Below, piece after piece: positions 7,401 to 62,474 of a DNA stretch of 64,000 bases. The stretch spans positions 10,104 through 74,103 of the forward strand of contig JAUSED010000010.1 of NCBI GenBank assembly GCA_030650425.1. The letters run 5' to 3'. How positions within the stretch are numbered: position 1 is the stretch's first letter; every line of letters starts with the position of its first letter. Position numbers and translations under genes: made by a program. The DNA is from Candidatus Omnitrophota bacterium. GTDB taxonomy: Bacteria; Omnitrophota; Gorgyraeia; Gygaellales; Profunditerraquicolaceae. Under the pieces are notes generated by a model that saw nothing but the letters and a program-made list of their open reading frames with translations, did not search any database and was not told the DNA's origin.

Positions 7401-8739
7401 CAGACGTTGGAGAAACGGAAGAGAAAGGTATACCGCCTAGAGATAAGCCTCCGCTAAAATAGCTCCTAATCACCTGGCCAGTAGGAGTATAGGCTGGCTG
7501 TTGGATGTTGTATTCGCCGTCTTTAAAGGATTTTTGGTAGGCTTGGAAGTAGGTGGTTTTGGACCAAGGTTGTTGGGAAATAAGGTTGGTGAGGTTGCGG
7601 GAGTTGATGAGCGCAGAAGCTGCATCAGGGACAGTCCCCTGCGGGGACAGTCCCTGATGCCGAGGGAAAGTGTCCCCTGCTGCTGTTGCGTGTCTAGCTT
7701 TAAACCATTGGGCTAAGATTAAAGAATAATAGACTTGCCTTAAAGGGGCATAGCGTTTGGAGGTGTTTATATCTTTGGTGAGTTTGGGGATGATTAGTTC
7801 TCTGATTAATTGAGAGGAATATTCGTTTAATTGCTTTAGGCGATCATCTTTAAACTGATACTGCGCGTAGGGGACACTTTCCTTTAAAGAGTTCCCTGAT
7901 AGCCCTGACGGAAAATGTCCCCTGCTTTTACTCGAAAGATAATCAGACTCAAGCATTACTTTAAGGGTAGCTTTGTAGATGTAGGCCGACGGTGGCACTT
8001 CGACTCGCTTGCGCTCGCTCAGTGCGCTGGCTTCGCCAGCGGTTTCGCGGATGATGATTTCGCCCGGGACGATCCAAGGACGAGTTAAGGTGGGTATGGT
8101 GATGTTTTCGTTACCTAAGAGTTCACCTGCTTTTTGATAAAGCTTATCCCAGTAAAGCTTACCTTCGGGGGTTTCGGGAGAAGTGAATTTGGCAGTGTCT
8201 TTTTTAAGTTGGAGATCGGCTTCTAGAAGAATCTTACCTACGTCAGTCTTGGCTAAATAATCATCAATAATATTATCCTCTGCATCAGGGCGTAGGTTGA
8301 CCCAGAAGGAGCTGTTGGGAAGGGTAAGGCCGATGAAGAAATAATTTAAGAGAACCTTGGTTTCGTCTTTAAGTTTAGTTTCATCCAAGGGGACACTTTC
8401 CTTTGGGCCAGAAGGGGACACTTTCCTTTGAGTGGCTTCGCCATAGCTCTGACGGAAAGTGTCCCCTTCTGCAGAAGTTGGAAAATGTCCCCTGCTGTTC
8501 TTTTGGGGAAGCTGATCGCCCTTGTCTAAAAGAAGCTTAAAGCTGTTGTTTTCTGGAAGATATTGCAGGGAACGCAGATGCAAGGGGCGGAATTTGTCTG
8601 GGATAAGGGAATTACGGAAGAGAGCGAGATGGCCGGAGATATCCAGCTCGCCGGCGACTTGAGCAAAACCAGACTGCTCAAAAATTAACAAAAAGCAGAC
8701 TAAAAAATAGATAAATTTAGGGAATTTGCGTTTTGGCAT
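1489..8739 (-). CDS. Giant secreted multidomain protein (2416 aa). Signal peptide, transglutaminase-like Cys-His-Asp core, LysM-like segment. N- and C-terminal modules shared with the 44259..49622 paralog.
   Basis: Uninterrupted ORF. N-terminal MPKRKFPKFIYFLVCFLLIF hydrophobic signal. GECDTTSSFVWLMFRYLGV...H...D resembles a transglutaminase-like cysteine protease core. N-terminal ~400 aa and C-terminal ~130 aa align with the second giant ORF. Confidence 0.7.
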   Translation of the reverse strand: MPKRKFPKFIYFLVCFLLIFEQSGFAQVAGELDISGHLALFRNSLIPDKFRPLHLRSLQYLPENNSFKLLLDKGDQLPQKNSRGHFPTSAEGDTFRQSYGEATQRKVSPSGPKESVPLDETKLKDETKVLLNYFFIGLTLPNSSFWVNLRPDAEDNIIDDYLAKTDVGKILLEADLQLKKDTAKFTSPETPEGKLYWDKLYQKAGELLGNENITIPTLTRPWIVPGEIIIRETAGEASALSERKRVEVPPSAYIYKATLKVMLESDYLSSKSRGHFPSGLSGNSLKESVPYAQYQFKDDRLKQLNEYSSQLIRELIIPKLTKDINTSKRYAPLRQVYYSLILAQWFKARHATAAGDTFPRHQGLSPQGTVPDAASALINSRNLTNLISQQPWSKTTYFQAYQKSFKDGEYNIQQPAYTPTGQVIRSYFSGGLSLGGIPFSSVSPTSGSPIKIVTDSTSLFETVGDKGISPLTDNNMPVLAVIGNGMNPSDTNITITEGLPSSQASPAERPSPSGASSFAPIAQKLVIGIQASSSAIGVMQVDEFNKFMSKYELDKIGTSNQFKLASWRISAYDLGEDGPVVAIERKFNQILINPRAFGHETEDRILYLVLQAAVQIEIKEGSNYYLKGIYEKLAEVSVFRGMAVRSVIKDLMKKSRFTFQQSLNVKAPIPMISIPGLGKPIITNDVKKELLQSLFGVFGTEKGDFERIDLVLANFEEEIDKAIKEEKRKFFPRLGHSGWEVLARIRGDSRHSFNEQPFIEALRKNKILVELIFDQWSQFFRYDDVLRSISNRVGFGDLVKDKLSEFRRTGQQQVITIGVIGAASGQEPITAVAYFSRQIPKILLEQLRPGEDIEKAITVKVDVMSYSNKVYDRVKNNQIIFPKIVIDNAGFTDKEKADYFKEVYVVEELKGYKRSDRMNSHLEFYDVDLADVSAGTTPNLVGNLDILFVHHVLQYVPLGLESRNALSHYLDSLLKSGGILSKIGEDKSVMKDILADKYFDYSNQHQDILYVKEKPPLATILREYKDGDFYAKREAMRTLLKINPKLFPLSSREELKTFLTKEKKRLESEENTRYWQEIIGYITQLLERLEKNEQKGTGNAAVSNLADTPASSAQEKPVSSPVGEINKIEGWSFDKGRLSFPDGTSIYNQHTRRSQLKISLEPLDLSKINADEDLEWVRALIIQWQKEAEEKKELPSKETAERILVGQEIGSPEKVNKEHTGFISKVFEYAPLIPFLLLFAALYYIGIYSFLNYSSKVDSPQQAAPNIYRYAGAPETKPFRIPQEEKSRQKWGVIPLADNFTKPRGEGSIIKKMESDSNFNNPQIAEIVSGREYLLEREHLFSGLYNMLGNKGEFYVKEIKAAGVETDNSKVIKLKVKIPALNKGESIPVFSLLGRVIRNIEGQEGALELGDDGISLRALKKTKATFVTYDLLRVVERDRHNYISSDMRETPQLAKEFQILKTNPHLREIKDKLDSAKDAPFEEKIEAVRDIIRNNFIYNKYFDSELASGTYFDWLADTLAEGEKFRGECDTTSSFVWLMFRYLGVDALYAEGYSLGGTNAILKYPGHALILIHDKDFGWRPFDATEFMQEEIRYIGKFVQKESKPFLEKKTAKTEPEKVNKAEKPTKSVFQEAQLAVFKMLGYKEGLKDIVENKKVVDKTRIDALKELRKLKADKQLYDIASKEENSLISLDTTVDDILEVGGGWRLADNALELLRKCDNSSSRYREMVEDKKAYIWARIRALNKLEYSPAEFVDFDRAELIKLEPFFEEFIKKYSGKESVLYSNDETFLKEMVNALKILESEPWSKELKKEAERILEAKELWREKLKKKLAIKTPFFYQSVLHITLKGQSLSLLAFYYYGDRNQYSQIADANEYGLLSEEKNGQTPIGPPGWKIFIPEAKVVEHQVKKGDSIKSLVRQYYGENKGKSYGKRFSPARRIIGYNGLNLPVRLIPGGIMRIPMSTSEWERLQKKTPAEKGKGPNLPKSSGSPLAEEKGTVSNLPDTAASPAQQEPASLAAEVTVELTETYRPITQGEKEAALNKYAQMSEADFSMPIRLNSNNAGALEDGAIFHGTNREFEQFILSPKDMEYTMGLGFYFTDNTEQAQKYALRRTQQKITGNPQVVAARLIRSKLLDCRNNVPDEVINAWLKYLESLSLDWARVALRDRIFTYIRYRRHNKKPILLRQGGGSKETGVDGWFDGITQGFDFRIFILSLGYDGVIGMEGGEGRGDEAVGNHVSIVIFDPENIITYEMLNNFKESRKKNLQSVSSVNSPIILNKDKKGGIDFRALPAVSSPINPAMLKLSPIEINRLSNLNLDAEWAEIENMLKAGIIPSNQRLKEYVASSCLRQALGRQMGKVLGCIANILRMEEERVTETEPELEDMLVLIESGKPENELQLSLAQIQILPREPQLVTP
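7627..7680. repeat. Palindromic repeat, GGGGACAGTCCCC variant, inside giant ORF 1 in-frame
   Basis: cagggacagtcccctgcggggacagtccctgatgccgagggaaagtgtcccctgc. Translated in-frame as GDTFPRHQGLSPQGTVPD. Confidence 0.7.
7870..7925. repeat. Family A palindromic element (GGGGACACTTTCC...GGAAAATGTCCCC) inside giant ORF 1 in-frame
   Basis: ggggacactttcctttaaagagttccctgatagccctgacggaaaatgtcccctgc. Encodes SRGHFPSGLSGNSLKESVPY in the giant ORF. Confidence 0.75.
8389..8495. repeat. Compound family A element (two left arms plus long right arm) inside giant ORF 1 in-frame
   Basis: The same ~107-bp compound element recurs at 12304-12436 and 50308-50412 intergenically. Here it is translated as ...NSRGHFPTSAEGDTFRQSYGEATQRKVSPSGPKESVP.... 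Confidence 0.75.
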
Positions 8740-8755: not shown

Positions 8756-8811
8756 GGGGACACTTTCCTTGAAAGAGTTCCCTGATAGCCCTGATGGAAA
8801 ATGTCCCCTGC
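8756..8811. repeat. Family A palindromic element just upstream of the giant ORF 1 start
   Basis: ggggacactttccttgaaagagttccctgatagccctgatggaaaatgtcccctgc. Confidence 0.75.
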
Positions 8812-8922
8812 GGGGTTTTTTTGCTGCCAGTCGTATGTTAATTCAAGTATACAATATAGGTAAGAGGATTCAAGGGGAAAGCGGGGATTTAGGGAAAGCG
8901 CTTTCTTTCGTAGCGAACTCGA

Positions 8923-8980
8923 AAAATGGGGACAGTCCCCAAAAGGCGGGGACAGTCCCCATTTTTTGTCCCCATTTTTT
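8923..8980. repeat. Tandem mini-hairpins AAAATGGGGACAGTCCCCATTTT x2
   Basis: gaaaaatggggacagtccccaaaaggcggggacagtccccattttttgtccccatttttt. The same unit occurs at 49343-49375 and 49716-49740. Confidence 0.65.
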
Positions 8981-12303: not shown

Positions 12304-12436
12304 AGGGGACACTTTCCTTTGGGCCAGAAGGGGACACTTTCCTTTGGGCCAGAAGGGGACACTTTCCATTGAGTGGCTTCGCCATAGCCCTGACGGAAAG
12401 TGTCCCCCTCTGCGGAAGTTGGAAAATGTCCCCTGC
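12304..12436. repeat. Compound family A element (three left arms), intergenic
   Basis: ggggacactttcctttgggccagaa x2 ... ggaaagtgtcccc...ggaaaatgtcccctgc. It generates spurious ORFs 12274..12594 and 12344..12550. Confidence 0.8.
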
Positions 12437-26497: not shown

Positions 26498-26580
26498 AAA
26501 AAGCCATCCCGCATTCTAATGCAAGATGGCGGCCCGACCATCGATAATCCTCCAGAGATATTTAAATATCTCTGAACCAC
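26498..26580 (-). promoter_or_regulatory. Candidate cis-regulatory structured RNA (riboswitch/attenuator-like) in the mscS leader
   Basis: Minus sense: hairpin CAGAGATATTTAAATATCTCTG; conserved hairpin GATGG-UCGGGCCG-CCAUC; alternative terminator GCCAUC...GAUGGC plus U6 directly before RBS GAGGAG. Paralogous copy at 29893-29970 with a compensatory hairpin. Confidence 0.5.
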
Positions 26581-29892: not shown

Positions 29893-29970
29893 AAAAAAAC
29901 AAAACCACCAACTGCAATTTCGCAGATGGCGGCCCGACCATCTAAACCTTCAGGAAATCTTCCTGAACCC
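29893..29970 (-). promoter_or_regulatory. Second copy of the candidate cis-regulatory RNA, in the hflK leader
   Basis: Same GATGGTCGGGCCGCCATC hairpin. The variable hairpin TTCAGGAAATCTTCCTGAA has different sequence but keeps pairing. The alternative terminator CCAtCTGC...GCAGtTGG plus a U-rich run precedes RBS AAGGAG. Confidence 0.5.
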
Positions 29971-31679: not shown

Positions 31680-32213
31680 TCAATCTCTGTGGAATCCAAT
31701 TGGAGGCTTCTGCGGCAAAAGAGGCGCGGGTGCCGGCTCAAGCAGCTTTTTAATCGCTTCGAAAATAAGCTGGATCTTATCATCATGTGTAGCGTATTTC
31801 TTCTCGAGCGCGGCGATCTTTTCCGCCAAGTCCTTGTGAGTCAAAAGGAACTCTTTTAATTTCACGAAGGCGCGCATAATCATAATATTAACCTGGATAG
31901 CGCGCTCGCTGTTCAGAACGCTAGAGAGCATAGCCACTCCCTGCTCGGTAAAGACATAAGGAAGTTGATGGGAAAAACGCAGCCCGCTTAGGTGGTCACA
32001 AATTGTGACCAGCTCCTCTTTTTCCTCTTTCCTGAGCTGAAACATGAAATCCGATGGAAATCGTTTTATATTTCTCTTTACTGCTTGATTCAACCGCTTA
32101 GTAGCAACACCATATAACTTAGCCAAATCAATATCTATCATTACCTTCTTACCTCTGAGATCTAATATTCTTGCGGCTATTAGCTCAACCGATATAATCA
32201 TAGACATACCCAC
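31680..32213 (-). CDS. ORF6N (KilA-N-like) domain protein
   Basis: LRGKKVMIDIDLAKLYGVATKRLNQAVKRNIKRFPSDFMFQLRKEE is the canonical ORF6N N-terminal region. Confidence 0.65.
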   Translation of the reverse strand: MGMSMIISVELIAARILDLRGKKVMIDIDLAKLYGVATKRLNQAVKRNIKRFPSDFMFQLRKEEKEELVTICDHLSGLRFSHQLPYVFTEQGVAMLSSVLNSERAIQVNIMIMRAFVKLKEFLLTHKDLAEKIAALEKKYATHDDKIQLIFEAIKKLLEPAPAPLLPQKPPIGFHRD

Positions 32214-32514
32214 CTCCTTCTCTGATTAGCTTGAAGTAGCAATCTACGGCTTCAAGTTGCTAATCCCTTGTACCACAAATAGTTCTCTACTTGATGCCAT
32301 AATTTGTGACCTCAAGTTTGTAATCTATTGATGTGTCTCCTTTCTACTCTAATAGACGCTCGAAAGGGCGGAATCTAACGTATTTTTTCGACAAAAAAGA
32401 CGCTGGAGTTTCCCAGCGCCTTGCGAAAAATATAACCGTCCCCTTTTATTTACGCATATAAATATTATACTATAGGGACAAAACCAAAACCCCAAGCCTT
32501 TTTAGGGTTAGGTT

Positions 32515-32904
32515 TTATTTTGAGTGGACATGGAAGCCAACTACCCTTGTTTGCTTAGGCGGTTCAAGCAGCCTTTTAATCGCTTCAAACACTACAGCGA
32601 ATTGACCGTCATATTTATTTTCCATATCTTCAATTTTACGCTTTAATACAGCATAGGTCAACCCTATCCTTCGTAAAGCTACAAAAGCCCTCATTATCTG
32701 AATATTAACCTGTATTGCCTGTTTGCTATTTAGCACGCTCGAAAGCATTGCTACGCCCTCCTGCGTAAAAGCAAACACATTAGGCGCATGTTTAATCTTG
32801 GAACTTATCACAATTTGTGATAAGTTCATGATCTCCCTCCTAGTAAGTGAAAACATAAAATCTTCTGGAAAACGGTCGATATTTCTTCTAACCGCCTGGT
32901 TCAC
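32515..32904 (-). CDS. N-terminally truncated ORF6N-domain paralog (GTG start directly after a TATAAT box)
   Basis: Begins within the ORF6N core (NQAVRRNIDRFPEDFMFSLTRRE). C-terminal half aligns with 31680..32213. Confidence 0.5.
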   Translation of the reverse strand: MNQAVRRNIDRFPEDFMFSLTRREIMNLSQIVISSKIKHAPNVFAFTQEGVAMLSSVLNSKQAIQVNIQIMRAFVALRRIGLTYAVLKRKIEDMENKYDGQFAVVFEAIKRLLEPPKQTRVVGFHVHSK

Positions 32905-36194: not shown

Positions 36195-36362
36195 CCCCTA
36201 TTTTCTAGAGAATTGCCTTTAGATTCTAATGTCTAAACTCATAATAACGTTCCTTTGTTATTGATTATATTCTACCTCGGTTTTTGAGTTTTACAATCGA
36301 AAAGACGGGATTGCTTCGGCTGCTGCGCTGCCTCGCAATGACGGGGGAGCTAAAAAAACAAG

Positions 36363-36436
36363 GGGACACTTTCCTTTAAAAAGTAACAAATAGCTCTGAC
36401 GGAAAATGTCCCCTTCAATTACTGTGTCCCCTGCTG
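36363..36436. repeat. Family A element
   Basis: ggggacactttcctttaaaaagtaacaaatagctctgacggaaaatgtcccc...gtgtcccctgc. Confidence 0.8.
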
Positions 36437-36441
36437 CGGAA

Positions 36442-36834
36442 TTATTGGCAGCAGGATCTTTCTTTTTCTTCGGCGCTTGAACCGGCTTTGCAGAGGCTGT
36501 GTAGCTTACGAAGCTGCTCTTTGGAAAGCATCTTTTTAAGCGTCACGAACGCGCTCAAAAGCTCTTTCATCGACTCTTTTTTAAGCGTGTACTTTCTGTC
36601 GAGCAGTTTGGCGATCTCAGCCATATCCGGCGAGTCATCCCATAGCTTTGACATAATGTCTACGGCTATCGTTTCAACCTCCGCGTTAACTTTAATCAGG
36701 CTTTTTTTCGTATCCAGCTTCAAATCCTTAACCTTACGCAGGTTTTCATCGGAAAAACCTAATTCAGCCTGATTTTCAAAGATCGCGTGCGCCATTTTGA
36801 AAAATTTGTTGCTTAGGCATTGTTTATGCATATT
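36442..36834 (-). CDS. Hypothetical helical protein with LTxxQ-like repeats (Spy/CpxP-like?)
   Basis: Start taken at MHKQCLSNKFF. The longer ORF start lies inside a repeat element. FSDENLRKVKDL and LSKEQLRKL motifs. Confidence 0.35.
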   Translation of the reverse strand, partial: NMHKQCLSNKFFKMAHAIFENQAELGFSDENLRKVKDLKLDTKKSLIKVNAEVETIAVDIMSKLWDDSPDMAEIAKLLDRKYTLKKESMKELLSAFVTLKKMLSKEQLRKLHSLCKAGSSAEEKERSCCQ

Positions 36835-36854
36835 GCACCCCCTTTCGGTGATCA

Positions 36855-36909
36855 GGGGACACTTTCCTTTTGAAAGTTCCACATAGCTCTGACGGAAAAT
36901 GTCCCCTAC
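36855..36909. repeat. Family A element
   Basis: ggggacactttccttttgaaagttccacatagctctgacggaaaatgtcccctac. Confidence 0.8.
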
Positions 36910-36990
36910 TGATGACTTAATTATATAAAAATAGGGGTAAGTTGGGAATTGGGCGGGGACACTTTTTATGGATGTTTTTCTACTAGAAGA

Positions 36991-37053
36991 AAAGGCGAAA
37001 CAGTTTCCTGTCCGGCCTTCGCAGATAGCTTTCTGCGGAAACTGTTTCTTGCG
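36991..37053. repeat. Family B palindromic element (GAAACAGTTTCC...GGAAACTGTTTC)
   Basis: aaaaggcgaaacagtttcctgtccggccttcgcagatagctttctgcggaaactgtttcttgcga. Paralogs at 39085-39149 and 41636-41703. Always adjacent to a family A copy. Confidence 0.75.
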
Positions 37054-37059
37054 AAGAAG

Positions 37060-38955
37060 TTATAAATCAGAGAGGTTTTCGAGGTATTCCCAGCGCTGGG
37101 TGGCTTGGTCTATCTCGGTGGAGAGTGCTTCGGAGCGGGACTCGGCTTGGGCTCTTTCGGTAGGGGTTTTCTGGTAAAAACTGATATCCGCGAATAGGGC
37201 GTAGAGCGCTTTTTGCTCTGCTTCCAGTTGCTCTATTTTTAAGGGAAGTTCGTCTAATTCCTGCTGTTCTTTAGACGTGAGCTTGCGCGGGATAATCGGC
37301 TTTTCTTTTTTGAGCGGCTCTTTTTTAGGCTTGGCCTTTGACGGCTCAGACGCTGTTTCAGTATGGCGCTGGCTTAACCAATCATCATACCCTCCGGGAT
37401 ATTCATTAACCACGCCATCACCTTCCAAGGCAATGGTCGAGGTAACTACATTATTCAGGAATTGCCGGTCATGACTGACTAAAAGTAAAGTGCCGTCATA
37501 CTCCGAAAGTAATTCTTCCAAAAGCTCCAAGGTCTCGATATCCAGATCATTGGTCGGTTCATCCATTACCAGCACATTAGAGGGCTTGGAAAAAAGCCGG
37601 GCAAGCAAGAGGCGGTTACGCTCGCCTCCGGAAAGAACTTTAACCTTAGTGCGGCTGCGGTCCGGGGCAAAAAGAAAATCCTGCAGATAACCCAAGATAT
37701 GCTTGGGCTTGCCGTTAATGATGATTGTTTCGCTGGAATCATTAACATTCTCAGCCACGGTTTTTTCTTCATCAAGTTGTTCGCGCAGCTGGTCGTAATA
37801 AGCAATCTCTAAGTTCGTGCCGAGAGTGGCTTTGCCCCGCTGAGGCTCAAGCTTACCTAAGAGAATGCGTAAAAGCGTAGTTTTGCCGCTGCCATTGGGG
37901 CCGATCACCCCGATCTTATCGTGACGCATAATATTGGTGGAAAAATCGCGGATCAGGCATTTATCGCTATAACTAAAATGCAGTTGAAAGGCTTTAATTA
38001 CTTTGTGGCCGGAGAGGACTGATTTTTGGGCGCGCATACGCACCAAACCCTCTTCTTTGCGCTGAGCCTTCTTCTCCTGCCTTAAACGCTCAAGGGCCTT
38101 GACCCTGCCTTCATTACGACAACGCCGGGCCTTCACTCCCTGACGAATCCAGACCTCTTCTTCGGCTAACTTTTTATCAAAATGCTTCCATTCTGATTCT
38201 TCAATATCCAAGGCCGCCTCTTTACGCGCCAAGAAAGTTTTATAATCGCAAGACCAGCTGAAGATCCTGCCCCGGTCAAGCTCAACGATGCGGGTTGCCA
38301 GATGGGTCATAAACATCCGGTCATGGGTCACAAAAAAGACCGTGCCCGGATAATCCGCCAAAAACTCCTCCAGCCAATTAATCGAATCAATATCCAGATG
38401 ATTAGTCGGCTCATCTAAAAGCAAAACCTCTGGTTTTAAGACCAAGGCCCGGGCTAAGAGCACCCTGCGCTTCTGTCCTCCGGAGAGGCTTGAGAAATCG
38501 CTATCAGCGTCCAGCTTCATCTTGGAGATAACATTCTCCACCTGATTATTCACATCCCAACTTTCCGTGCGATCCAACTCTGCCTGCACAATATCCAGCT
38601 GACGCAGTAATTCTTTGCTATGCTCGATATGCAAACGGTGAGTAAGCTGATGGTAGCGGCTCAAAAGATTGGCCCGCTCTCCCAAGCCGGAAAGGACAAT
38701 ATCATAAACATTACCTTCTATCTGGGCTGAAACTTCCTGAGGAAGGTGGGTAATCTGGATACCTTTTTGCAGGACCACTTGGCCAGCATCAGGCGAAAGC
38801 TCCCCTGCCATCACCTTCATCAGGGTGGTTTTGCCCGCGCCATTACGGCCAAGCAGGGCCACTCGCTCGCCCGATTCCAATTGCAAGTTTAAGCAATCAA
38901 AAATAAGCGGGCCGCCGAACTTTAAACTGAGCTCTTGTAAACTAATTAATGCCAT
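37060..38955 (-). CDS. ABC-F family ATPase with two ABC cassettes and C-terminal coiled-coil (Uup-like)
   Basis: Two Walker A (GRNGAGKTT, GPNGSGKTT), two LSGG signatures, C-terminal EQQELDELPLKIEQLEAEQKAL coiled-coil. No TMD. Confidence 0.85.
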   Translation of the reverse strand: MALISLQELSLKFGGPLIFDCLNLQLESGERVALLGRNGAGKTTLMKVMAGELSPDAGQVVLQKGIQITHLPQEVSAQIEGNVYDIVLSGLGERANLLSRYHQLTHRLHIEHSKELLRQLDIVQAELDRTESWDVNNQVENVISKMKLDADSDFSSLSGGQKRRVLLARALVLKPEVLLLDEPTNHLDIDSINWLEEFLADYPGTVFFVTHDRMFMTHLATRIVELDRGRIFSWSCDYKTFLARKEAALDIEESEWKHFDKKLAEEEVWIRQGVKARRCRNEGRVKALERLRQEKKAQRKEEGLVRMRAQKSVLSGHKVIKAFQLHFSYSDKCLIRDFSTNIMRHDKIGVIGPNGSGKTTLLRILLGKLEPQRGKATLGTNLEIAYYDQLREQLDEEKTVAENVNDSSETIIINGKPKHILGYLQDFLFAPDRSRTKVKVLSGGERNRLLLARLFSKPSNVLVMDEPTNDLDIETLELLEELLSEYDGTLLLVSHDRQFLNNVVTSTIALEGDGVVNEYPGGYDDWLSQRHTETASEPSKAKPKKEPLKKEKPIIPRKLTSKEQQELDELPLKIEQLEAEQKALYALFADISFYQKTPTERAQAESRSEALSTEIDQATQRWEYLENLSDL

Positions 38956-38984
38956 AGGACCTCATTAATGTATAGGGGACACTT

Positions 38985-39030
38985 TCCTTTTAAGAGTCCC
39001 CGGATAGCTTTGACGGAAAATGTCCCCTGC
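38985..39030. repeat. Family A element
   Basis: ggggacactttccttttaagagtccccggatagctttgacggaaaatgtcccctgc. Confidence 0.8.
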
Positions 39031-39084
39031 TGTGCGACGACTGTTTCTTGCGAAAGGGTTGCTGTGAGTGTTATGGAAATAGAG

Positions 39085-39149
39085 AAAAAGGCGAAACAGT
39101 TTCCTATCCGGTCTATCTGAATACTTCTACGGAAACTGTTTCTTGCGAG
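39085..39149. repeat. Family B element
   Basis: aaaaaggcgaaacagtttcctatccggtctatctgaatacttctacggaaactgtttcttgcgag. Confidence 0.75.
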
Positions 39150-39166
39150 TATTTTAGAAGAATTAC

Positions 39167-39619
39167 TTAGGCGCGGTCGCGGCTGCGCTTGCGGAAAATA
39201 GGCTTCTTCCTGCCGGCTGGCCTGCTGTCTTCCCTGGGGCTGCGGTCGAATTTGGGCTTAAACGAACCTCTCTCCCCACCTACACTGCCGCCTTCTTTGC
39301 GCTTGGAAAAACAATCTTTGCAGTATATTGGACGGTCTCCGGTAGGCTTAAAGGGAACCTCACATTCAGTATTGCATTCCGCGCAGATAGCTTTAGTAAA
39401 ACTTCTCTCGCGGAAGCTATTTTCCCGGCCCCCTCTATCGCGGCGATAAGGATTATCGAAACGCTGGGCAGGCCTAGCTGTGGAAGACTGGGCAATCAGG
39501 GTGTCGAGCTTCTTCTCCAGAAAAGTTAATTGCTGTTGGATTCTACCAATGGCAGAGGCTAGATCTGACTCAGCCTGTGGTTCAAATACTGGGGGTTTAC
39601 GTTTAAATATCTTTTTCAT
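39167..39619 (-). CDS. Zinc-ribbon (CxxC-x17-CxxC) protein with Arg-rich tails
   Basis: CAECNTECEVPFKPTGDRPIYCKDCF. Basic R/K-rich C-terminus. Start taken at MKKIFKRK. Confidence 0.45.
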   Translation of the reverse strand: MKKIFKRKPPVFEPQAESDLASAIGRIQQQLTFLEKKLDTLIAQSSTARPAQRFDNPYRRDRGGRENSFRERSFTKAICAECNTECEVPFKPTGDRPIYCKDCFSKRKEGGSVGGERGSFKPKFDRSPREDSRPAGRKKPIFRKRSRDRA

Positions 39620-39767
39620 CTTGCTCCTTGTGTACAAACACAACACCGGCGTAATTCAAATAAACGCCGGGTGTCTTTTATCGTGGTTAAGTTGCTATAC
39701 TTTAACTATCTACTATACACCTTTTGGGGGATAAAGCAAAGGGTTCTTGAGAGACAAGGGGACACTT

Positions 39768-39812
39768 TCCTTTAAGCCGTATCTGATAGCTTTGACGGAA
39801 AATGTCCCCTGC
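39768..39812. repeat. Family A element
   Basis: ggggacactttcctttaagccgtatctgatagctttgacggaaaatgtcccctgc. Confidence 0.8.
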
Positions 39813-39817
39813 TATTG

Positions 39818-40525
39818 TTAGGAAAAAAGCTCTCTGGCGCCGTGCTTATCTTGGATATAGACTTCGGGGATAAATTCTATGGAGTTAGGGATAAGGTCGG
39901 ACATAACTTTTTTTAGGCGTAACTGCTGGGTGGCATTTTGAAGGTCAAAGATGGGATTTTGGCTAAGATCGTTTAATAAAAGAATAACCGGATTATAGGG
40001 AAAAACAAAATCCTTCAAAAGCTGTTTGATCAGCAGGTCTAAATAATCCGGCTTGTCCTTAAAAACATTTACCGCGGTTTTAAAAGTGATTTTTCCCCAA
40101 TCCTCAGCAATAGTTTTATGGATCAGGGCGTAGCTAGAAGAATATTTAACCATTCTGGCTTGGCCGGGAGATAATTTACTGGCGGCGTTAATAATCACCG
40201 TGGTAAACTCGGAATGCTTAAATGTTTTGATCTCTTTGTGGATATCAATAGTGAGCAGGTCAAAAATGTAGGCGCCGCGCACGCTGGATGCCGCGCTGAT
40301 CGTGCTGCGCTTGACGAAATCCTCTACCGCATCCCAAAGGATCTTTTCATCATCGCGAATAAAATTTAAAGATAGAATATGGCAGGTTTGGCCTTCGCGC
40401 ATCGCTTGATATTGGCGGACTTTGTCCTCATTATGGCCGGCATAGGAAATTTCGTCAAAAAGGGGCATATGCTGGAAGAGGTTGGAATTTTGGAAGCCGA
40501 AGTCGATGAGGTTCATAATAAGCAA
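39818..40525 (-). CDS. Hypothetical protein, 235 aa, no family recognised
   Basis: Long ORF flanked by repeat elements. No motif recognised from sequence. Confidence 0.35.
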   Translation of the reverse strand: MLIMNLIDFGFQNSNLFQHMPLFDEISYAGHNEDKVRQYQAMREGQTCHILSLNFIRDDEKILWDAVEDFVKRSTISAASSVRGAYIFDLLTIDIHKEIKTFKHSEFTTVIINAASKLSPGQARMVKYSSSYALIHKTIAEDWGKITFKTAVNVFKDKPDYLDLLIKQLLKDFVFPYNPVILLLNDLSQNPIFDLQNATQQLRLKKVMSDLIPNSIEFIPEVYIQDKHGARELFS

Positions 40526-40533
40526 ATACTCAA

Positions 40534-40648
40534 GGGGACACTTTCCTTTTCCCGCCAGGCTATGTAATAGCGGGCGGGATCCCGCCTGATAAAGAATAGC
40601 TTGGCGGGAAAAGAGTTCCCGATAGCTTTGACGAAAAATGTCCCCTGC
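40534..40648. repeat. Family A element with a ~55-bp insertion inside
   Basis: ggggacactttccttttcccgccaggc...gcgggatcccgcctg...gatagctttgacgaaaaatgtcccctgc. Confidence 0.7.
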
Positions 40649-40661
40649 TATTTAGTACATT

Positions 40662-41615
40662 CTAAATACTCTCAATTATCTTTATCATTTCCTCTTTGTT
40701 CTTTACCCGAGAGGATTTTTCGCGCAATGGCCGGATTTGACGGAAACCTTTGGTGTACCAGCCGAAAAACTTGCGGTAGATGACTACTCCGTTGCGCTCG
40801 CCATAAAAGGCGATAGAAGCATTTAAATGCTCCAGCATTACTTTAATCACCTCAGACTGCGCGGGCCGGGAAATAATTTTACCGCTCTTTAAAAACTCTC
40901 TAATCTCTTTAAAGATCCACGGGTTGCCAAACGAACCGCGGGCAATCACCAACCCGTCGCAATTTGTTTCATCGAGCATCTTTTTGGCTAATTGCGCGGA
41001 TAAGATATCGCCGCTGGCAATAACCGGGATATTTAAGGCCTTCTTCACTTTCTGAATTACGGCGTAATTTACCTTTCCACTATACTCTTCGACCTTGGTT
41101 CTACCGTGGATAAATAACGCGCTTACTCCGGCATCTTCAGCGTAAAGGCTGACCTCTTTGGCGTTGATACTCTGCTGATCCCAACCAATGCGCATCTTTA
41201 CCGTAACCGGGACTTGGGAATGCTTGACCACTAATTTCAATAATTTATTTAATTTTTTGGGTTCTTTGAGCAAGGCTGCTCCCTCTTGGCGCCGGACCAC
41301 TTTCTTTGCCGGACAGGCGGCGTTAAAATCAAGCAGGTCAAATTTATAATCTTTAAGCACATCCAAAGCCTTAAGCATGAATTTTTCTTCGCAGCCTAAT
41401 AATTGTACGCCTAAAGGCTTATCCTTAGGATGCGAGCTAAGCATACTCCGCGTCCTTTTGCTTTTATGGCCGATCGAACGGGCATTGATCATTTCCACAA
41501 AGGCAAGCTCGGCGCCGAATTTGCGGTTGAGCATCCGGAAAGGCAGGTCGCTTACCCCGGCCATAGGGGCGAGGATGAGGTTGGATTTGAGTTTTAGATT
41601 ACCGATTTTGAGCAT
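40662..41615 (-). CDS. tRNA-dihydrouridine synthase (DusB-like)
   Basis: LAPMAGVSDLPFR..., catalytic C in FNAACPAKKV, K in VTVKMRIGWD. Start taken at MLKIGNL, because the longer ORF start runs into a repeat. Confidence 0.8.
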   Translation of the reverse strand: MLKIGNLKLKSNLILAPMAGVSDLPFRMLNRKFGAELAFVEMINARSIGHKSKRTRSMLSSHPKDKPLGVQLLGCEEKFMLKALDVLKDYKFDLLDFNAACPAKKVVRRQEGAALLKEPKKLNKLLKLVVKHSQVPVTVKMRIGWDQQSINAKEVSLYAEDAGVSALFIHGRTKVEEYSGKVNYAVIQKVKKALNIPVIASGDILSAQLAKKMLDETNCDGLVIARGSFGNPWIFKEIREFLKSGKIISRPAQSEVIKVMLEHLNASIAFYGERNGVVIYRKFFGWYTKGFRQIRPLREKSSRVKNKEEMIKIIESI

Positions 41616-41635
41616 AGTATAATATTTCAATTCAA

Positions 41636-41703
41636 AGAGACAGTTTCCTGTCAACCTTCGTAAATAGCCTACTGCGGAAACTGTCCCTTTCGAGGATACG
41701 CAA
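41636..41703. repeat. Family B element (degenerate right arm)
   Basis: agagacagtttcctgtcaaccttcgtaaatagcctactgcggaaactgtccctttcgag. Confidence 0.65.
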
Positions 41704-41805
41704 GGGGACACTTTCCTTTAAGCCGTATCTGATAGCTTTGACGGAAAATGTCCCCTGCGAGTAGGAGGTTAAGAGTATTCCAGCCTGACGGAAAATGTCC
41801 CCTGC
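41704..41805. repeat. Family A element with a duplicated right arm
   Basis: ggggacactttcctttaagccgtatctgatagctttgacggaaaatgtcccctgc...cctgacggaaaatgtcccctgc. Confidence 0.8.
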
Positions 41806-47200: not shown

Positions 47201-49622
47201 CTTTTAACCTCTCCACAATATCAGGAATGAATCTTGGGCTTGCCCACCCTTCAGGCGGCATAAAATTAACAAATAATATATGGCCGCCAGGAGCGACTAA
47301 TTCTTCGGATTTCCTAAAATACTCAACGACATTTAATAATGGATCTTCTCTCAGAGATGGATCATACATCTTATAAGGCCCATAAATATTCATATATGTA
47401 CGCATATTATAAAAAAGTATGACATCCGGCTTTTTTTGTAAACCTAATGCTCTTAAGGAATTGGGGTTAAACTCGAAGAAATCTTTTTCCCATATTTCAA
47501 AGTAACCTTCTTTAATGCCATAAGGTATTCGCGTGTCCACATTGACTACTCTATAGATTGGAACGCCTTGTTCATTACGGACAGAAAGCGGATTAGCGCC
47601 GTAACCGATATTTAGAATTACACTCCCTTCGGGAACCCCTAAAGCTTTTAAGAAAATCCTCAGATTATCCGAAGCCTCTTTATTATAGTACTCACCAGGA
47701 TGTTCTTTGAGCCCAGTCAACACCACAGTATTACCTGCTTCTTCCATCGCCAAAGAAGAGACGGTTTCTTTCTGCGCCGGTGAGGCGGCTGGGCTGCTGG
47801 ACAAACCATAATCCCTTAATTGAAAATCCTGTATGGCTTTCTCGGCATAGAAAACAATGTTGTTATATTCTGCCTCTTCTAAACGAACGCCTCCTCGATA
47901 AAAATCGCTTTCTGGGGCGTTAACGGAAAGAACGACCACGCCCGTATCCCCAAAAGAAGCTGCCAAATGTTCAAGGCCGGCACCTTCCGGATAAGGATCC
48001 ACGTAAAACCCTTCATCTTCTAAAAAAACGTAGTAATGAGCGCCCCCCCCTTTTTCATCCTTTTTTTCCATCACGTAAGCCTCGTTTCCTTGTGACCTCA
48101 AAACCAAGGTCAACCACGCCGCGTGAACAGCACATACGGCCTGAGGCATCGTCCGCTTCAAAAAAATCCTCGTATTTTTAGCAAACTTAAAAACGGCTTC
48201 CTTAGTCATCGGCGAACCGGCGGATTCGACTCGCCCACCTTCGGCGGGCTCGCTCACCACCAATCTTGAGCTTGTCGAAGGGATGGTTACCTGAATTCCC
48301 GCGACTGCACCTGGTGTTCCCTGAATGTCCATAACTAACTCGCCACTACGGACAGCTGGCGAACTTGTAGCAACTATCGTTGACACAGGGCTCGAGCCAG
48401 CATTTACGGTACCAAACGGTTGGATGTTGATAGCAAAATTTTCTCCTCCGCTAAAATAGCTCCTGATCACCTGACCTGTGGGAGTATAGACTGGTTCTTT
48501 AATGTTGTATTCGCCGTCTTTGAAGGATTTTTGGTAGGCTTGGAAGTAGGTGGTTTTGGACCAGGGTTGTTGGGAAATAAGATTGGTGAGGTTGCGGGAG
48601 TTGATGCGCGCATCAGGAGACACTTTCCTTTTGAGGGTTCCATTATCGCCCTGACGGAAAATGTCCCCTACTTTTAGAGTATGCCGGGCTTTAAACCATT
48701 GGGCTAAGATTAAAGAATAATAGACTTGCCTTAAAGGAGCATAGCGCTTGGAGATGTTAATATCTTTGGTGAGTTTGGGGATGATTAGTTCGCGGATTAA
48801 TTGAGAAGAATATTCGTTTAATTGCTTGAGACGTTCATCCTTAAACTGATACTGCGCGTAGGGGACACTTTCCTTTTGAGCGTTCTCTGATAGCCCTGAC
48901 GGAAAATGTCCCCTACTTACACTTGAAAGGTAGTCAGACTCAAGCATTACCTTAAGCGTAGCCTTATAAATGTAGGCTGAGGGCGCGTCTTTCGTTTCTC
49001 TGATGATAATCTCATCCGGTACTATCCATGGGCGGGTTAGGGTAGGAATGGTTATGTTCTCAGAGCCAAAGAGCTCTCCTGCTTTGGCATAGAGCTTATT
49101 CCAGTAGTCTCTGCCTTCAGGGGTCTCTGGTGAGGTAGCTAAAGCAGTGTCTTTCTTAAGCTGGAGATCAGCTTCCAGCATAATCTTACCTACATCAGTT
49201 TTAGCTAGGTAGTCATCGATAATATTGTCTTGGGCATCTGGACGTAGGTTGACCCAAAAGGAATCGTTGGGGAGGGTTAGGCCGATGAAAAAGTAGTTGA
49301 GGAGGGTTTTGGTGGATACTTCTAGTGATTCTGTAGAAAAAGGGGACAGTCCCCAAAAAACGGGGACAGTCCCCTTTTTCTGTTCGCTTTTGGGGAATTG
49401 GTCGCCTTTGTCTAAATAAAGTTTAAAGCTGTTGTTTTCGGGAAGATACTGCAGGTAACGCAGGTGCAGGGGACGAAATTTGTCTACTCCAAAAGAATTA
49501 TGCAGGGCGGTAAGGCGAGCGGCAATGTTGAGCTCTACAGCGACTTGCGCAAAGCCGGATTGCTGGATAGCCAACAAGATACAGAGAAAAATAGCGATAA
49601 TTTTTAGGGATTTTTTTCGCAT
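44259..49622 (-). CDS. Giant secreted multidomain protein 2 (1787 aa), paralog of 1489..8739
   Basis: The N-terminal ~400 aa share motifs with giant 1: FAQVA.EL, DKFRPLHLR.LQYLPENNSFKL, LLNYFFIGLTLPN.SFWVNLRPDA.DNIIDDYLAKTDVGKI. The C-terminal ~130 aa are also shared (GGIDFRALP...KEYVASSCL). The central region differs. Confidence 0.7.
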   Translation of the reverse strand: MRKKSLKIIAIFLCILLAIQQSGFAQVAVELNIAARLTALHNSFGVDKFRPLHLRYLQYLPENNSFKLYLDKGDQFPKSEQKKGTVPVFWGLSPFSTESLEVSTKTLLNYFFIGLTLPNDSFWVNLRPDAQDNIIDDYLAKTDVGKIMLEADLQLKKDTALATSPETPEGRDYWNKLYAKAGELFGSENITIPTLTRPWIVPDEIIIRETKDAPSAYIYKATLKVMLESDYLSSVSRGHFPSGLSENAQKESVPYAQYQFKDERLKQLNEYSSQLIRELIIPKLTKDINISKRYAPLRQVYYSLILAQWFKARHTLKVGDIFRQGDNGTLKRKVSPDARINSRNLTNLISQQPWSKTTYFQAYQKSFKDGEYNIKEPVYTPTGQVIRSYFSGGENFAINIQPFGTVNAGSSPVSTIVATSSPAVRSGELVMDIQGTPGAVAGIQVTIPSTSSRLVVSEPAEGGRVESAGSPMTKEAVFKFAKNTRIFLKRTMPQAVCAVHAAWLTLVLRSQGNEAYVMEKKDEKGGGAHYYVFLEDEGFYVDPYPEGAGLEHLAASFGDTGVVVLSVNAPESDFYRGGVRLEEAEYNNIVFYAEKAIQDFQLRDYGLSSSPAASPAQKETVSSLAMEEAGNTVVLTGLKEHPGEYYNKEASDNLRIFLKALGVPEGSVILNIGYGANPLSVRNEQGVPIYRVVNVDTRIPYGIKEGYFEIWEKDFFEFNPNSLRALGLQKKPDVILFYNMRTYMNIYGPYKMYDPSLREDPLLNVVEYFRKSEELVAPGGHILFVNFMPPEGWASPRFIPDIVERLKDRKTTIFKTRNSDYSKVAVAFSPEVSSLVTATKSSASPAQKETASSAINIIPSIKRWWGKFVSNKPTQNKELIKVGDIPDTERLGGNLSGKDHTIEIIARNTPGLIQPSTVIAFANVPDVIVAITEAIKGNVQKMAVLYLTNLFLKHNLESLHSPLLKLRNNGIIFEPAFSRMMSLYARQRGFAGENIGGIYFTSYGLYTNGLQAKFKNDQLAMELDIPSEVKFEYEQKEGSIDALSFWREGKLIGQKTKEPIIFYTPTLDFIEAKAEKAGVRLLGISPSFDKVFYITTYGEVISMSISGRRYMNNLQETTQNSKAWLNARYPNVNMDSLNAFLSALKPSVSRVTSTSGEELKYILTAKDIAGAGPYFELEKPVVSIRDSRRLVKRGLVYYQGLLFKPTPEGKEALKKAFALKKINDETLDFILTHLMYTALNANAEKAILLELEDIFLYGISGHYSTLKHVFTTGNRAKIYSLQKELVLQEAETIKNGSAQKASIFSTITVGYKGKALDLRANGPFDLLLMLLTEETLDHNETMVDITSILENKLTMVVNKQTLSLEDILTNQINFKDGDIVYFKEPAASPAQKQPVSSAVEVKIEVPQNTSSPINEKISKKQRREIAKQYLIKLGVKFDRLTPERQPQLAKLELGMNLFESEPHKQLINRLVKKIQRLSQLLKVEIGIHIAPSADLPIMLEDEFYGNCIIVSPSMLRNRGVAKNVKQAKAVLEEFGSVFLGDIGLKRGKPSVPVALFISAYQEKVEDEEFISNQFPYRDFFVLYSDERTFEQRLLGLVQWDFDEIDGKPPYWFRYVLVERYLDKLLEIAEHQNNRKQNAQSLSSPIVTDTHKQANSVVNNGVDDGKGGIDFRALPIVTQAMSNLRLSASSVISLSQLKSLNLNQELQEMQKLVDAGITPSAERIKEYVASSCLQGNPDTQKVVSCIADILRLEEERCYPTEVTLKDILVVLESGMPNQELKAVFTGLR
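48616..48670. repeat. Family A element, in-frame inside giant ORF 2
   Basis: ggagacactttccttttgagggttccattatcgccctgacggaaaatgtcccctac, translated as VGDIFRQGDNGTLKRKVSPD. Confidence 0.7.
48861..48916. repeat. Family A element, in-frame inside giant ORF 2
   Basis: ggggacactttccttttgagcgttctctgatagccctgacggaaaatgtcccctac, translated as VSRGHFPSGLSENAQKESVPY. Confidence 0.75.
49343..49375. repeat. GGGGACAGTCCCC mini-hairpin pair, in-frame inside giant ORF 2
   Basis: ggggacagtccccaaaaaacggggacagtcccc. Encodes KKGTVPVFWGLSPF at the position where giant 1 carries a family A insert. Confidence 0.7.
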
Positions 49623-50307: not shown

Positions 50308-50412
50308 GGGGACACTTTCCTTTGGGCCAGAAGGGGACACTTTCCTTTGAGTGGCTTCGCCATAGCTCTGACGGAAAGTGTCCCCTTCTGCAGAAGTTGG
50401 AAAATGTCCCCT
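50308..50412. repeat. Compound family A element, intergenic
   Basis: Near-identical to 8389-8495. Confidence 0.8.
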
Positions 50413-61848: not shown

Positions 61849-61850
61849 AA

Positions 61851-61964
61851 GGAGCACCGACCTACTCTCACATATCCTTACGAATACACTACCATCGGCC
61901 CTGAGGGGCTTAACTTCCGTATTCGGAATGGGAACGGGTGTTTCCCCCTCGGTAAAGGCACTCC
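61851..61964 (-). rRNA. rrf: 5S ribosomal RNA
   Basis: Minus sense: ...CCCGTTCCCATTCCGAATACGGAAGTTAAGCCCCTCAGGGCCGATGGTAGTG...GAGAGTAGGTCGGTGCTCC matches 5S helix IV/V consensus. Confidence 0.85.
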
Positions 61965-62474
61965 AAAATTTTTGTGCAACAAAAATTTTGGTACTTGGCG
62001 ATACCAAAAATCTTTTACCTAGGTTTGAGCCAAGTACCTCCATCACAAATAACCTCAACAACCACATAACCTCGTATGGTAAAAACTACTCTCAATAAAC
62101 CTTTGAGAATTGATTTTCCTCCACCTCCAGCTCTTTTGCAAGAAGGAGGCTCGGGATAATCTTCTTCGCTTTGCAGCGAAAAAAATTAAAGGCCAAGCCA
62201 ATCGGCTGATTAGTACGCATTAGCTCAAATCCTTACGGACCTTACACATTGCGCCTATCGAGGTCGTAGTCTACGACCAGCCTAATGGGGATACTTATTC
62301 TTGAGGGGGGCTTAGCACTTAGATGCTTTCAGCGCTTATCCCTTCCGAACATAGCTACCCGGCCTTTGCCCTTGGCAGGACAACCGGAACACCAGAGGTT
62401 CGTTTCTCTAGGTCCTCTCGTACTGAAGAGAACTCCTCTTCAAGTATCCTACGCCCACATCAGATAGAGACCGA

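Follow-up and report, generated by a model that had tools for sequence, protein, structure and literature searches.

The window (the whole 64,000-nt stretch of Candidatus Omnitrophota DNA that was analyzed) contains, between 36195 and 41814, genes for an ABC-F protein, a zinc-finger protein, a 235-aa protein and a Dus protein, separated by six spacers. Every one of these spacers holds at least one full copy of a palindromic repeat, family A, as the first-pass annotation had noted for nearly every spacer between 36 and 42 kb, and copies of a second type, family B, lie in the same region. The features of this interval are as follows:

36362..36413, minus strand: family A hairpin, -25.8 kcal/mol, z -5.3; the sole A copy with a U-run on the sense strand
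36855..36906, minus strand: family A hairpin, ending 22 nt 5' of the ATG at 36832
36955..36967, minus strand: relic, a decayed single A arm with sense strand AAAAAGTGTCCCC
36997..37048, minus strand: family B hairpin with the stem variant AGAAACAGUUUCC/GGAAACUGUUUCG, 11 nt 3' of the ABC-F stop codon
38975..39027, minus strand: family A hairpin, 19 nt 5' of the ABC-F start codon
39093..39142, minus strand: family B hairpin, 3' of the zinc-finger gene stop codon
39758..39809, minus strand: family A hairpin, 8 nt 3' of the stop codon of the 235-aa gene
40534..40645, minus strand: family A hairpin with a nested insert, ending 17 nt 5' of the ATG at 40516
41637..41687, minus strand: family B hairpin with stem AGGGACAG/CUGUCUCU, 21 nt 5' of the Dus start codon
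41704..41755, minus strand: family A hairpin
41780..41802, minus strand: half copy (sense-strand 5' arm, GTCAG and flank) that directly repeats the first part of copy 41704

Directly 3' of copy 36362 lies UUGUUUUUUU, and copy 36855..36906 sits just past a promoter-like TTCCCA-17-TATAAT site (36948-36920). The element at 36955, previously counted as a copy, proved to be merely a decayed arm, and it is common to L035, a locus syntenic with the window. The nested insertion reported in the loop of copy 40534 was borne out as a unique 68-nt palindrome, family D, at 40546-40613, and the 'duplicated right arm' described near 41704 corresponds to approximately 22 nt (arm, first loop bases and flank) repeated at 41780-41802.

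Family A consists of GGGGACAYTTTCC, then approximately 26 nt, then GGAARRTGTCCCC. When the window was searched for the 13-mer GGGGACAYTTTCC, allowing up to 2 mismatches and taking shuffled sequence as the expectation, we obtained 40 matches versus 2.4 expected (largest shuffle, 6); family B gave 26 matches versus 5.8 expected, and single arms almost never occur in the window. The 14 family A copies are spread over the whole window, 9 of them extragenic, and all 14 share one orientation, that of the sense strand of the genes (minus). On that strand, the folding energy of simple copies is -24 to -29 kcal/mol (z -3.8 to -6.2), and the stem contains a single U·G or mismatched position. The interior, earlier called variable, is in fact conserved in this genome, with GTCARRGCTAT beside one arm and AAA beside the other; copies within the genome are nearly identical, those at 39758 and 41704 exactly so. 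The 5' flank reads GCA in 9/14 window copies; in other genomes it varies. Copies lie mostly in the short spacers of co-directional housekeeping genes, typically in the order stop codon, copy, next ribosome-binding site; the flanking genes are functionally unrelated, and most spacers of the window have no copy. The position just 5' of ribosome-binding sites may merely mirror the scarcity of free room in a compact genome.

The clustering first perceived at 36-42 kb is not limited to that region. Further elements are found in other spacers of the window and, in frame, inside two giant genes, MDO8662854.1 (2416 aa) and its paralogue MDO8662894.1 (1787 aa), at indel hot spots that we number 1 to 3:

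7622..7677, minus strand: A-arm relic (7665-7677) plus family C doublet (7622-7660), in frame, hot spot 3 of MDO8662854.1
7870..7922, minus strand: family A, in frame, peptide RGHFPSGLSGNSLKESVP, hot spot 2 of MDO8662854.1
8389..8492, minus strand: nested double hairpin, an A copy within an A-type outer stem, hot spot 1 of MDO8662854.1, -66.3 kcal/mol
8756..8808, minus strand: family A hairpin in a divergent spacer, 16 nt 5' of the giant-gene start codon (8739)
8922..8966, minus strand: family C doublet in the divergent spacer, 5' of a FemAB-like gene
12305..12433, minus strand: nested double hairpin in which a 25-nt arm unit is duplicated in tandem, -80.3 kcal/mol
48616..48668, minus strand: family A, in frame in a second reading frame, peptide GDIFRQGDNGTLKRKVSP, hot spot 3 of MDO8662894.1
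48861..48913, minus strand: family A, in frame, hot spot 2 of MDO8662894.1; 50/54 identical to copy 7870
49335..49381, minus strand: family C doublet (GGGGACWGTCCCC twice), in frame, hot spot 1 of MDO8662894.1
50308..50411, minus strand: nested double hairpin, ending 20 nt 5' of the start codon at 50287

The in-frame copies (n=5 across the two giant genes) sit in variable linkers of giant surface-protein genes, and both genes are intact in the NCBI annotation despite copies of 54 nt and 105 nt, the latter (8389..8492) being equivalent to 35 codons in frame. The paralogous genes differ in their elements at hot spots 1 and 3; at hot spot 1, for example, MDO8662894.1 has a family C doublet versus the nested A of MDO8662854.1. 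Giant-protein homologues of several genomes hold elements at the same in-frame site, and homologues elsewhere carry different in-frame palindromes at these hot spots or lack any there. An AlphaFold model of the N-terminal domain of the giant protein (mean pLDDT 42.5) was unusable for placing the copies in surface loops. Nested copies (four in the window and one in L035), half copies and relics are all present, and the clusters of the window are nested or tandem, never head-to-head. The window copies show no inverted-doublet (REPIN) layout, and the hairpin is not preceded on its 5' side by a conserved GTAG-type tetranucleotide; it is the loop that contains GTAG or GTCA.

Families A and B had been proposed to form composite units from two distinct elements. 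We instead regard A and B as stem variants of one superfamily, because B shares the A loop and differs from A by compensatory stem changes; A-type stems with B-type loops also occur, in L016, L017, L054 and L101. The order and spacing of the two types vary (A followed after 16 nt by B; B followed by A after approximately 65 nt at 39093/38975 or approximately 90 nt at 36997/36855), and since an A copy is present in each spacer of the region anyway, adjacency of A and B is uninformative. Together they constitute a single superfamily of 50-54-nt REP-like hairpin repeats in Candidatus Omnitrophota, with a 13-bp stem (core ACA-N-UUUCC / GGAAA-N-UGU, foot GGGG...CCCC) that varies through compensatory change, and a loop of 20-30 nt that begins with G and ends with A.

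The exact arms occur at 33 loci in about 10 Omnitrophota metagenome-assembled genomes, and a looser pattern hit 116 metagenome stretches, part of them chance matches. After filtering, 104 family copies in 35 loop clusters were retained, with the stem common to all and with loops that are similar inside each genome and unlike between genomes. By this sequence comparison, the 13-bp stem is conserved over the phylum, at more than 100 Omnitrophota loci with approximately 35 loop types. It is kept by covariation: both-side changes occur in 4 of the 5 stem pairs that the search pattern left free, and 99.3% of stem cells are paired, with both-side changes in 33 cells, a result reached by 0 of 500 shuffles. 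The asymmetric pair, where present, reads U·G on the mRNA-sense strand. Copies with U·G are co-oriented with their flanking genes 54:5, as compared with 7:11 for copies with a perfect C-G pair (Fisher p = 1.2e-5); as many of the C-G copies come from STB_56, genome is a partial confounder of this contrast. The sense-strand bias is, moreover, inseparable from replication direction, since nearly all window genes share a strand and GC skew fails as a proxy for replication direction, tracking the coding strand in every locus.

Among the genes neighboring the 104 copies, recurrence was limited to orthologous contexts, and enrichment analysis of these neighbors revealed no enzyme associated with the copies. 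No exact match was found in viral contigs. At gathering score, no Rfam family fell at the elements, and relaxing the search to E values up to 5 returned only unrelated models at 13.6-22.1 bits, versus thresholds of 36-80. One of the candidates considered, a Moco-riboswitch match at 36961-37066 that spans a B copy, scored 22 bits against a threshold of 36 and had no fitting gene context. A CRISPR-like array was ruled out by spacing that is irregular and tied to genes. Literature searches found no description of Omnitrophota repeat content.

Comparison with relatives shows both turnover and constraint at shared slots. L035 is syntenic with the window, with amino-acid identities of 95.6% (ABC-F) and 93.7% (Dus) and with 72-75% identity at fourfold sites. 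It has a different hairpin, family E (flanked by A- and T-tracts), in five of the six spacers of the 36-42 kb region and no plain A copy there, in keeping with the active turnover that had been suggested. The same L035 spacers also hold F/G and B, and in the slot of 36855 a B copy sits within the loop of an A-like stem. In UBA6233, the slot downstream of Dus (occupied in the window by copy 40534) keeps the A stem around a loop that is that genome's own. Orthologous slots thus hold different hairpin families in close relatives. Copy 38975..39027, upstream of the ABC-F gene, is orthologous to L036:1748-1800 at 51/53 identical positions, versus 52-61% identity at fourfold sites of the neighboring genes in the same pair, and so appears to be under constraint. 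We recovered no unoccupied site with clean boundaries.

The first-pass annotation had envisaged a non-autonomous element system. Its more general description, of dispersed, diversifying, non-coding elements that lack coding capacity of their own, is supported; features specific to a transposon were not found. At 12 copies no target-site duplication is visible, the flanking bases being A|T without a direct repeat. The window ORFs that were scanned include no transposase, and neither the window nor approximately 1 Mb of loci showed a long element with these termini that might serve as a parent insertion sequence; nor did the scanned window ORFs and 1.03 Mb of loci yield an enzyme cognate to family A. 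Using E. coli RayT as the query against the 1.03 Mb of loci, we found a sole RayT-type gene, in contig L082, and six homologues besides. These Omnitrophota-like contigs (L082, L158-L164) carry RayT-type genes with inverted REP units at their flanks, GGGTCWGACCC(+CGTTATGTTAAC), that also form dispersed hairpin doublets. In the RayT clade examined, the flanking repeats are a different family from the A arms. The presence of such genes in Omnitrophota-like contigs nevertheless makes a RAYT-like enzyme plausible.

That system resembles ours in belonging to the same phylum, in its dispersed doublets with arms of 11-13 nt and loops of 22-24 nt, and in its compensatory variants (GTGTCAGACAC in L158), and L082 holds both the system and an A copy; however, its sequence is other, each arm is itself a palindrome, and its RayT is flanked by its own units. 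A broader parallel is offered by the REP/BIME sequences and REPINs of E. coli and Pseudomonas, which reportedly go together with RAYT (RayT) tyrosine transposases. REPs stabilize upstream RNA when they lie within mRNAs. Like these, the elements described here are short G+C-rich imperfect palindromes that are numerous, lie chiefly between co-transcribed genes and are presumably carried on mRNAs, with no target-site duplication, with mosaic or nested clusters, and with species-specific sequence in the same slots of related genomes. They differ in forming one long hairpin (13-bp stem, approximately 26-nt loop) rather than a 20-40-nt REP or inverted doublet, in lacking GTAG 5' of the hairpin, in having a single orientation and some in-frame copies, and in a stem that is conserved phylum-wide around a varying loop; no RAYT flanked by A arms was found.

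Rickettsia palindromic elements, as described in PMC10969869 with reference to the original report, are in-frame palindromic repeats in protein genes that add a peptide without destroying the gene. The in-frame insertions of MDO8662854.1 and MDO8662894.1 likewise leave their ORFs intact, but size, host and presumably sequence set the two groups apart (approximately 100-150 bp and Rickettsia only, as opposed to 52-54 or 105 nt in Omnitrophota), and the in-frame sites here are hot spots common to homologues in several genomes, each with different repeat families. The Correia/NEMIS elements of Neisseria and ERIC are transcribed repeats able to alter RNA processing or stability. For QMITE2 of Coxiella, the same paper (PMC10969869) describes a location in 3' untranslated regions and REP-like truncated copies. 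All of these share with our elements an intergenic location and, as predicted for the latter, co-transcription and RNA hairpins; they have clear terminal repeats, TA or other duplications and a length of 100-190 bp, whereas no duplication is seen here.

Neither a canonical terminator nor a composite A+B transposon is the best reading of these data. It is very improbable that the elements are classical MITEs, a reading close to the original proposal, in which an insertion sequence ending in 13-bp terminal inverted repeats would have given rise to them by deletion and its DDE transposase would move them in trans. Terminal inverted repeats, small size, many copies and nesting would all fit such an origin, but there is neither a duplication at any of the 12 copies nor a transposase in the scanned window ORFs, nor a same-ended long element in approximately 1 Mb of loci; termini that are conserved phylum-wide around a divergent interior are the reverse of MITE decay, and a strand-specific U·G signal is unexpected for double-strand cut-and-paste. 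Terminator-like repeats do occur in some bacteria, and the many copies just 3' of stop codons, the UUGUUUUUUU tract after copy 36362 and the tracts beside family E recall them. We nevertheless hold it very improbable that these are intrinsic terminators that happen to be repeated: 13 of the 14 A copies lack a U-run, ordinary U-run terminators exist elsewhere in the window (12585, 43666, 55680, 60894 and 61797), and some copies lie inside ORFs and others 16-23 nt 5' of start codons in apparent operons. A terminator scan flags no A stem, although its 8-nt loop limit could match none anyway. The first-pass annotation had named, as the finding that would count against its own view, REP-type terminators fixed in position relative to genes; the REP-type character and the fixed slots by genes hold, but the occupants are polymorphic between relatives and are not canonical terminators.

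Equally little speaks for double-stranded DNA sites of a nucleoid or regulatory protein, or for uptake-signal sequences arranged as inverted pairs, which we likewise rate as highly improbable. Inverted uptake sequences do have a fixed word with a variable spacer, and the elements here likewise keep a fixed 13-bp word from genome to genome; however, single arms are almost absent, compensatory changes preserve pairing and not sequence, the asymmetric U·G pair is strand specific, and within a genome the loops are copied along with the arms. We rate as unlikely a host-encoded functional RNA cis-element for which Omnitrophota would have a dedicated ribonuclease or RNA-binding protein, and which would punctuate long polycistronic transcripts and be selected site by site without being mobile. 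The covarying stem across approximately 35 loop lineages, the conserved U·G pair and G...A loop ends, the 54:5 sense bias that appears only with the asymmetric stem, the 51/53 identity of the orthologous copy versus 52-61% at fourfold sites, and the shared in-frame site in giant-protein homologues of several genomes all favor it. Set against this are the relative with 94-96% protein identity that has swapped the family for unrelated hairpins in the same spacers; loops that are unrelated between genomes at the same slot and homogeneous within a genome; nested, half and decayed copies; the absence of copies from the majority of window spacers; and flanking genes without any functional relation.

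We consider it probable that the superfamily is a dispersed, REP-like hairpin repeat that turns over rapidly while retaining its sites, is transcribed as part of mRNAs and is under selection to fold in them. At the DNA level, the elements would be copied preferentially into places that already hold a hairpin, either by a trans-acting, single-strand-specific enzyme of the RAYT/HUH type that recognizes the conserved stem, or by arm-mediated template switching or gene conversion; either route would yield turnover that keeps the site. As every copy is presumably transcribed inside an mRNA, selection would then keep those versions that fold in the sense RNA. Within the mRNA, the hairpin would most likely form a structural barrier between cistrons or a point of processing, rather than a terminator. 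A bolder proposal, which we put forward as speculative and rather doubtful, is that the hairpin is no junk but that its U·G stem and G...A loop closure form a phylum-wide RNA signal. Omnitrophota would have a dedicated protein or ribonuclease to recognize it, and this factor would cleave or protect long, single-strand-coded transcripts at the junctions of cistrons. The signal would also be kept at fixed in-frame sites early in giant secreted-protein genes, where it could pace translation, and A, B, C and E would be cassettes that can stand in for one another in a single punctuation system.

The Omnitrophota, none of them cultured, are very small bacteria with giant genes and are probably host-dependent. 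Their compact genomes contain hairpin repeats that turn over fast and interrupt short-read assemblies, as illustrated by a public unitig (Logan) that ends inside identical copies. At shared hot spots the copies add peptides to annotated giant proteins, which bears on both annotation and homology searches. The superfamily also offers an unusually clean comparative signal of a REP-like repeat shaped by folding of the sense RNA, in that the strand bias is present only with the asymmetric stem. If the slot-retaining swap of hairpin families is general, it would provide a handle on how such repeats choose their targets.

Family A is a real and abundant hairpin repeat. In the window, its arm GGGGACAYTTTCC has 40 matches at no more than 2 mismatches, against 2.4 expected, and the arm of family B has 26, against 5.8 expected. 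The first-pass annotation had placed A copies in the spacers of 36–42 kb, and a full A copy indeed lies in each of the six spacers between 36195 and 41814, joined in three of them by a B copy. The clustering it described is present there, but the family ranges much more widely, with 14 copies window-wide, every one in the same orientation. The nested insert and the duplicated right arm it reported are likewise real, the latter as a half copy.

Family A copies beyond 36–42 kb, and two structures within that range (window positions; all copies in one orientation)
7870: family A copy
8389-8492: family A copy
8756: family A copy
12305-12433: family A copy, with a tandem-duplicated arm unit
48616: family A copy
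48861: family A copy
50308-50411: family A copy
40546-40613: nested insert in a family A copy
41780-41802: half copy

Three copies are double-decker hairpins: the loop of an outer stem encloses an inner copy whose arms are 18 bp long (predicted folding -66 to -80 kcal/mol). The interior, previously described as variable, is constrained within this genome, the loop in sense orientation opening with GUCARRGCUAU and closing with AAA. A separate palindrome at 36300-36345, GATTGCTTCGGC...GCCTCGCAATGACGGG, follows an A copy and its U-run; its word CTCGCAATGAC recurs in three other loci (L004, L021, and L108), so that it represents another dispersed repeat. We also note that a public short-read Logan unitig (L034, from SRR13727527) matches 39783-41730 at 100% identity and has both ends inside two identical A copies, showing that these repeats fragment de Bruijn graph assemblies.

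The window lies on a contig of 83.9 kb from a Candidatus Omnitrophota MAG, with almost all genes on the minus strand. Gene content at 36–43 kb is ordinary: two hypothetical proteins, ABC-F, a treble-clef zinc-finger protein, DusB (40662-41615, identical to MDO8662890.1), and glucose-6-phosphate isomerase. Two adjacent ORF6N-domain genes at 31680-32904, with one more in the syntenic relative L035 (L035:8095-8679) together with a Gp49/HTH pair, look like a small accessory-gene patch adjoining the hairpin-rich region. Elsewhere, two nhaA-I riboswitch matches on the minus strand (26524-26579 and 29924-29970; 47 bits, gathering score 37) precede genes for a mechanosensitive channel and an SPFH-domain protein, and a 23S rRNA match at 61849-63986 reaches only from model position 2049 to 2912 but takes up 1234 nt of sequence, with two LAGLIDADG endonuclease ORFs (62560-63099 and 63447-63986) in or adjoining it, which points to intron-type insertions in the 23S gene that bear genes for homing endonucleases.

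Beyond the window, exact arms around a 20–45-nt loop occur at 33 loci in about ten MAGs, all labelled Omnitrophota bar one labelled Planctomycetales. When the pattern was relaxed so that the G...A loop ends and inner stem alone were fixed, 116 stretches of metagenome matched, some by chance; viral contigs gave no match. Among the 104 collected copies that passed a paired-stem filter, a common stem carries 35 loop clusters, with loops similar inside one genome and unrelated across genomes. At stem pairs that the search pattern leaves unconstrained, we find covariation across 85 distinct sequences (GGG/CCC, CGG/CCG, GGA/TCC, GGT/ACC, AGA/TCT, and U·G, C-G, or G-C at pair 8): 99.3% of stem cells are paired and 33 are changed on both sides, values reached in 0 of 500 shuffles, and slid controls collapse. 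Four loci (L016, L017, L054, and L101) bear B-type loops on A-type stems, which makes A and B stem variants of one family, and the earlier proposal of two families forming composite A+B units is not supported. The six-base foot of A and its GGTGAC variant is also that of families C (GGGGACWGTCCCC units) and E (GGTGACTGTCACC units, in L035).

Dus homologues led to syntenic relatives of three kinds, and these reveal the turnover of these elements. In L035, the closest relative and one with the same gene order (identity 95.6% for ABC-F, 93.7% for Dus, and 72–75% at fourfold sites), five spacers that hold A in the window instead hold family E (AAAGGTGACTGTCAC-GCTTTTT-GTGACTGTCACCTTT, five times in 6 kb, L035:562-5850), which is absent from the window; other spacers hold B and families F/G (GGTTGTAGCGG...CCGCTACAACC). 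A decayed A arm at 36955 is common to both, and in L035 the slot of window copy 36855 is taken by an A-like stem whose loop contains a nested B copy. In the more distant L036 (ABC-F 88.7%, Dus 84.5%; fourfold sites 52–61%), the A copy upstream of ABC-F is kept at 51/53 identity, far above neutral expectation (p = 2.5e-9), and in UBA6233 (Dus 79% identical) the Dus-downstream slot holds an A stem with a genome-specific loop. Taken together, the three comparisons indicate that the slots are retained and their content exchanged. Hairpins themselves serve as targets, as nesting shows (A in A three times, D in A, and B in A). The first-pass view of actively diversifying non-autonomous elements is supported in substance.

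Copies also enter coding sequence. Two paralogous giant ORFs, annotated by NCBI as intact proteins (MDO8662854.1 and MDO8662894.1), contain five copies plus family C doublets with the frame kept: a 54-nt copy reads RGHFPSGLSGNSLKESVP, a 105-nt nested copy adds 35 residues, and the copy at 48616 uses another reading frame. Alignment with homologues places four indel hot spots in the conserved N-terminal domain; these are empty in many homologues and hold different in-frame palindromic repeats in others, such as SPEGLPAGRQGTVP at three sites of homologue P0125. At hot spot 1, homologues on L029 and L149 have the A stem in the reading frame used in the window, with different loops. The window paralogues have in common the hot spot 2 copy (50/54 identical) and differ at hot spots 1 and 3. 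At the fourth, paralogue 1 alone carries a 39-nt in-frame insertion, EASALSERKRVEV (7995-8033), which looks like another repeat family; P0125 holds a different repeat there.

The median distances of the hairpin in co-oriented spacers are 61 nt from the upstream stop codon and 24 nt to the longest-ORF start codon; at six start codons of the window, the gap from the end of the last hairpin is 16, 17, 19, 20, 21, and 22 nt, with a Shine-Dalgarno sequence inside it in 4 of the 6. This placement may only reflect the lack of other free room in a compact genome. The hairpins do not qualify as canonical terminators: a U-run follows only one A copy, and ordinary U-run terminators are present elsewhere in the window. 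A Moco-riboswitch match over a B copy (36961-37066, minus strand; 22.1 bits against a threshold of 36, E = 0.077) is probably chance, with no molybdenum-cofactor gene downstream. Directly upstream of one hairpin slot, the window (36920-36948) and L035 (L035:5190-5230) share a conserved, promoter-like TTCCCA-17-TATAAT site; a transcript from it would have the hairpin at its start.

Orientation provides a further signal. With the sense strand defined by G at the loop start and A at its end, copies with U·G at pair 8, which would read as a C·A mismatch on the opposite strand, share the orientation of both flanking genes 54:5 (5:2 inside ORFs), whereas perfect C-G copies show no bias (7:11); the contrast (Fisher p = 1.2e-5) is partly confounded with genome, many C-G copies coming from a single genome, STB_56. 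By loop cluster, 23 are co-oriented and 8 anti-oriented (U·G-dominated 17:2, C-G-dominated 5:6, by hand tally). Such a bias is what selection for sense-strand folding, at the level of either the transcript or single-stranded DNA of that strand, would predict; because GC skew follows genes in every locus, transcription and replication are not separable here.

As to spread, the copies lack flanking direct repeats, no transposase turned up among the window ORFs scanned, and neighbour-gene clustering around the 104 copies yielded no associated enzyme. Searching 1.03 Mb of collected loci with E. coli RayT gave a single weak match, a RayT-type gene between housekeeping genes (L082:960-1700; Pfam Y1_Tnp 57 bits, threshold 23; NCBIfam REP_Tyr_transpos 67.6 bits, below the cut-off of 80), several homologues of which carry the name RayT in their sources. 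Inverted GGGTCWGACCC(+CGTTATGTTAAC) units flank the gene and six homologues, with a covarying variant, GTGTCAGACAC, in L158; the unit recurs as dispersed hairpin doublets in L060, L082, L107, and L160. Across L082, L158-L164, L060, and L107, the set has the appearance of a complete REP-RAYT system of Omnitrophota-like contigs, indicating that systems of this hairpin architecture exist in the phylum; its enzymes adjoin GGGTCWGACCC units and are not cognate to family A.

Family A itself has neither GTAG 5' of the hairpin nor inverted doublets, nor was a cognate enzyme found for it. It is therefore best filed as REP-like in mode of action rather than as a demonstrated REP-RAYT member, and it is unlike known kinds in its phylum-conserved stem with hypervariable loops, the exchange of hairpin families within a slot, the in-frame hot spots common to giant-protein homologues, and the comparative signal of sense-strand folding.
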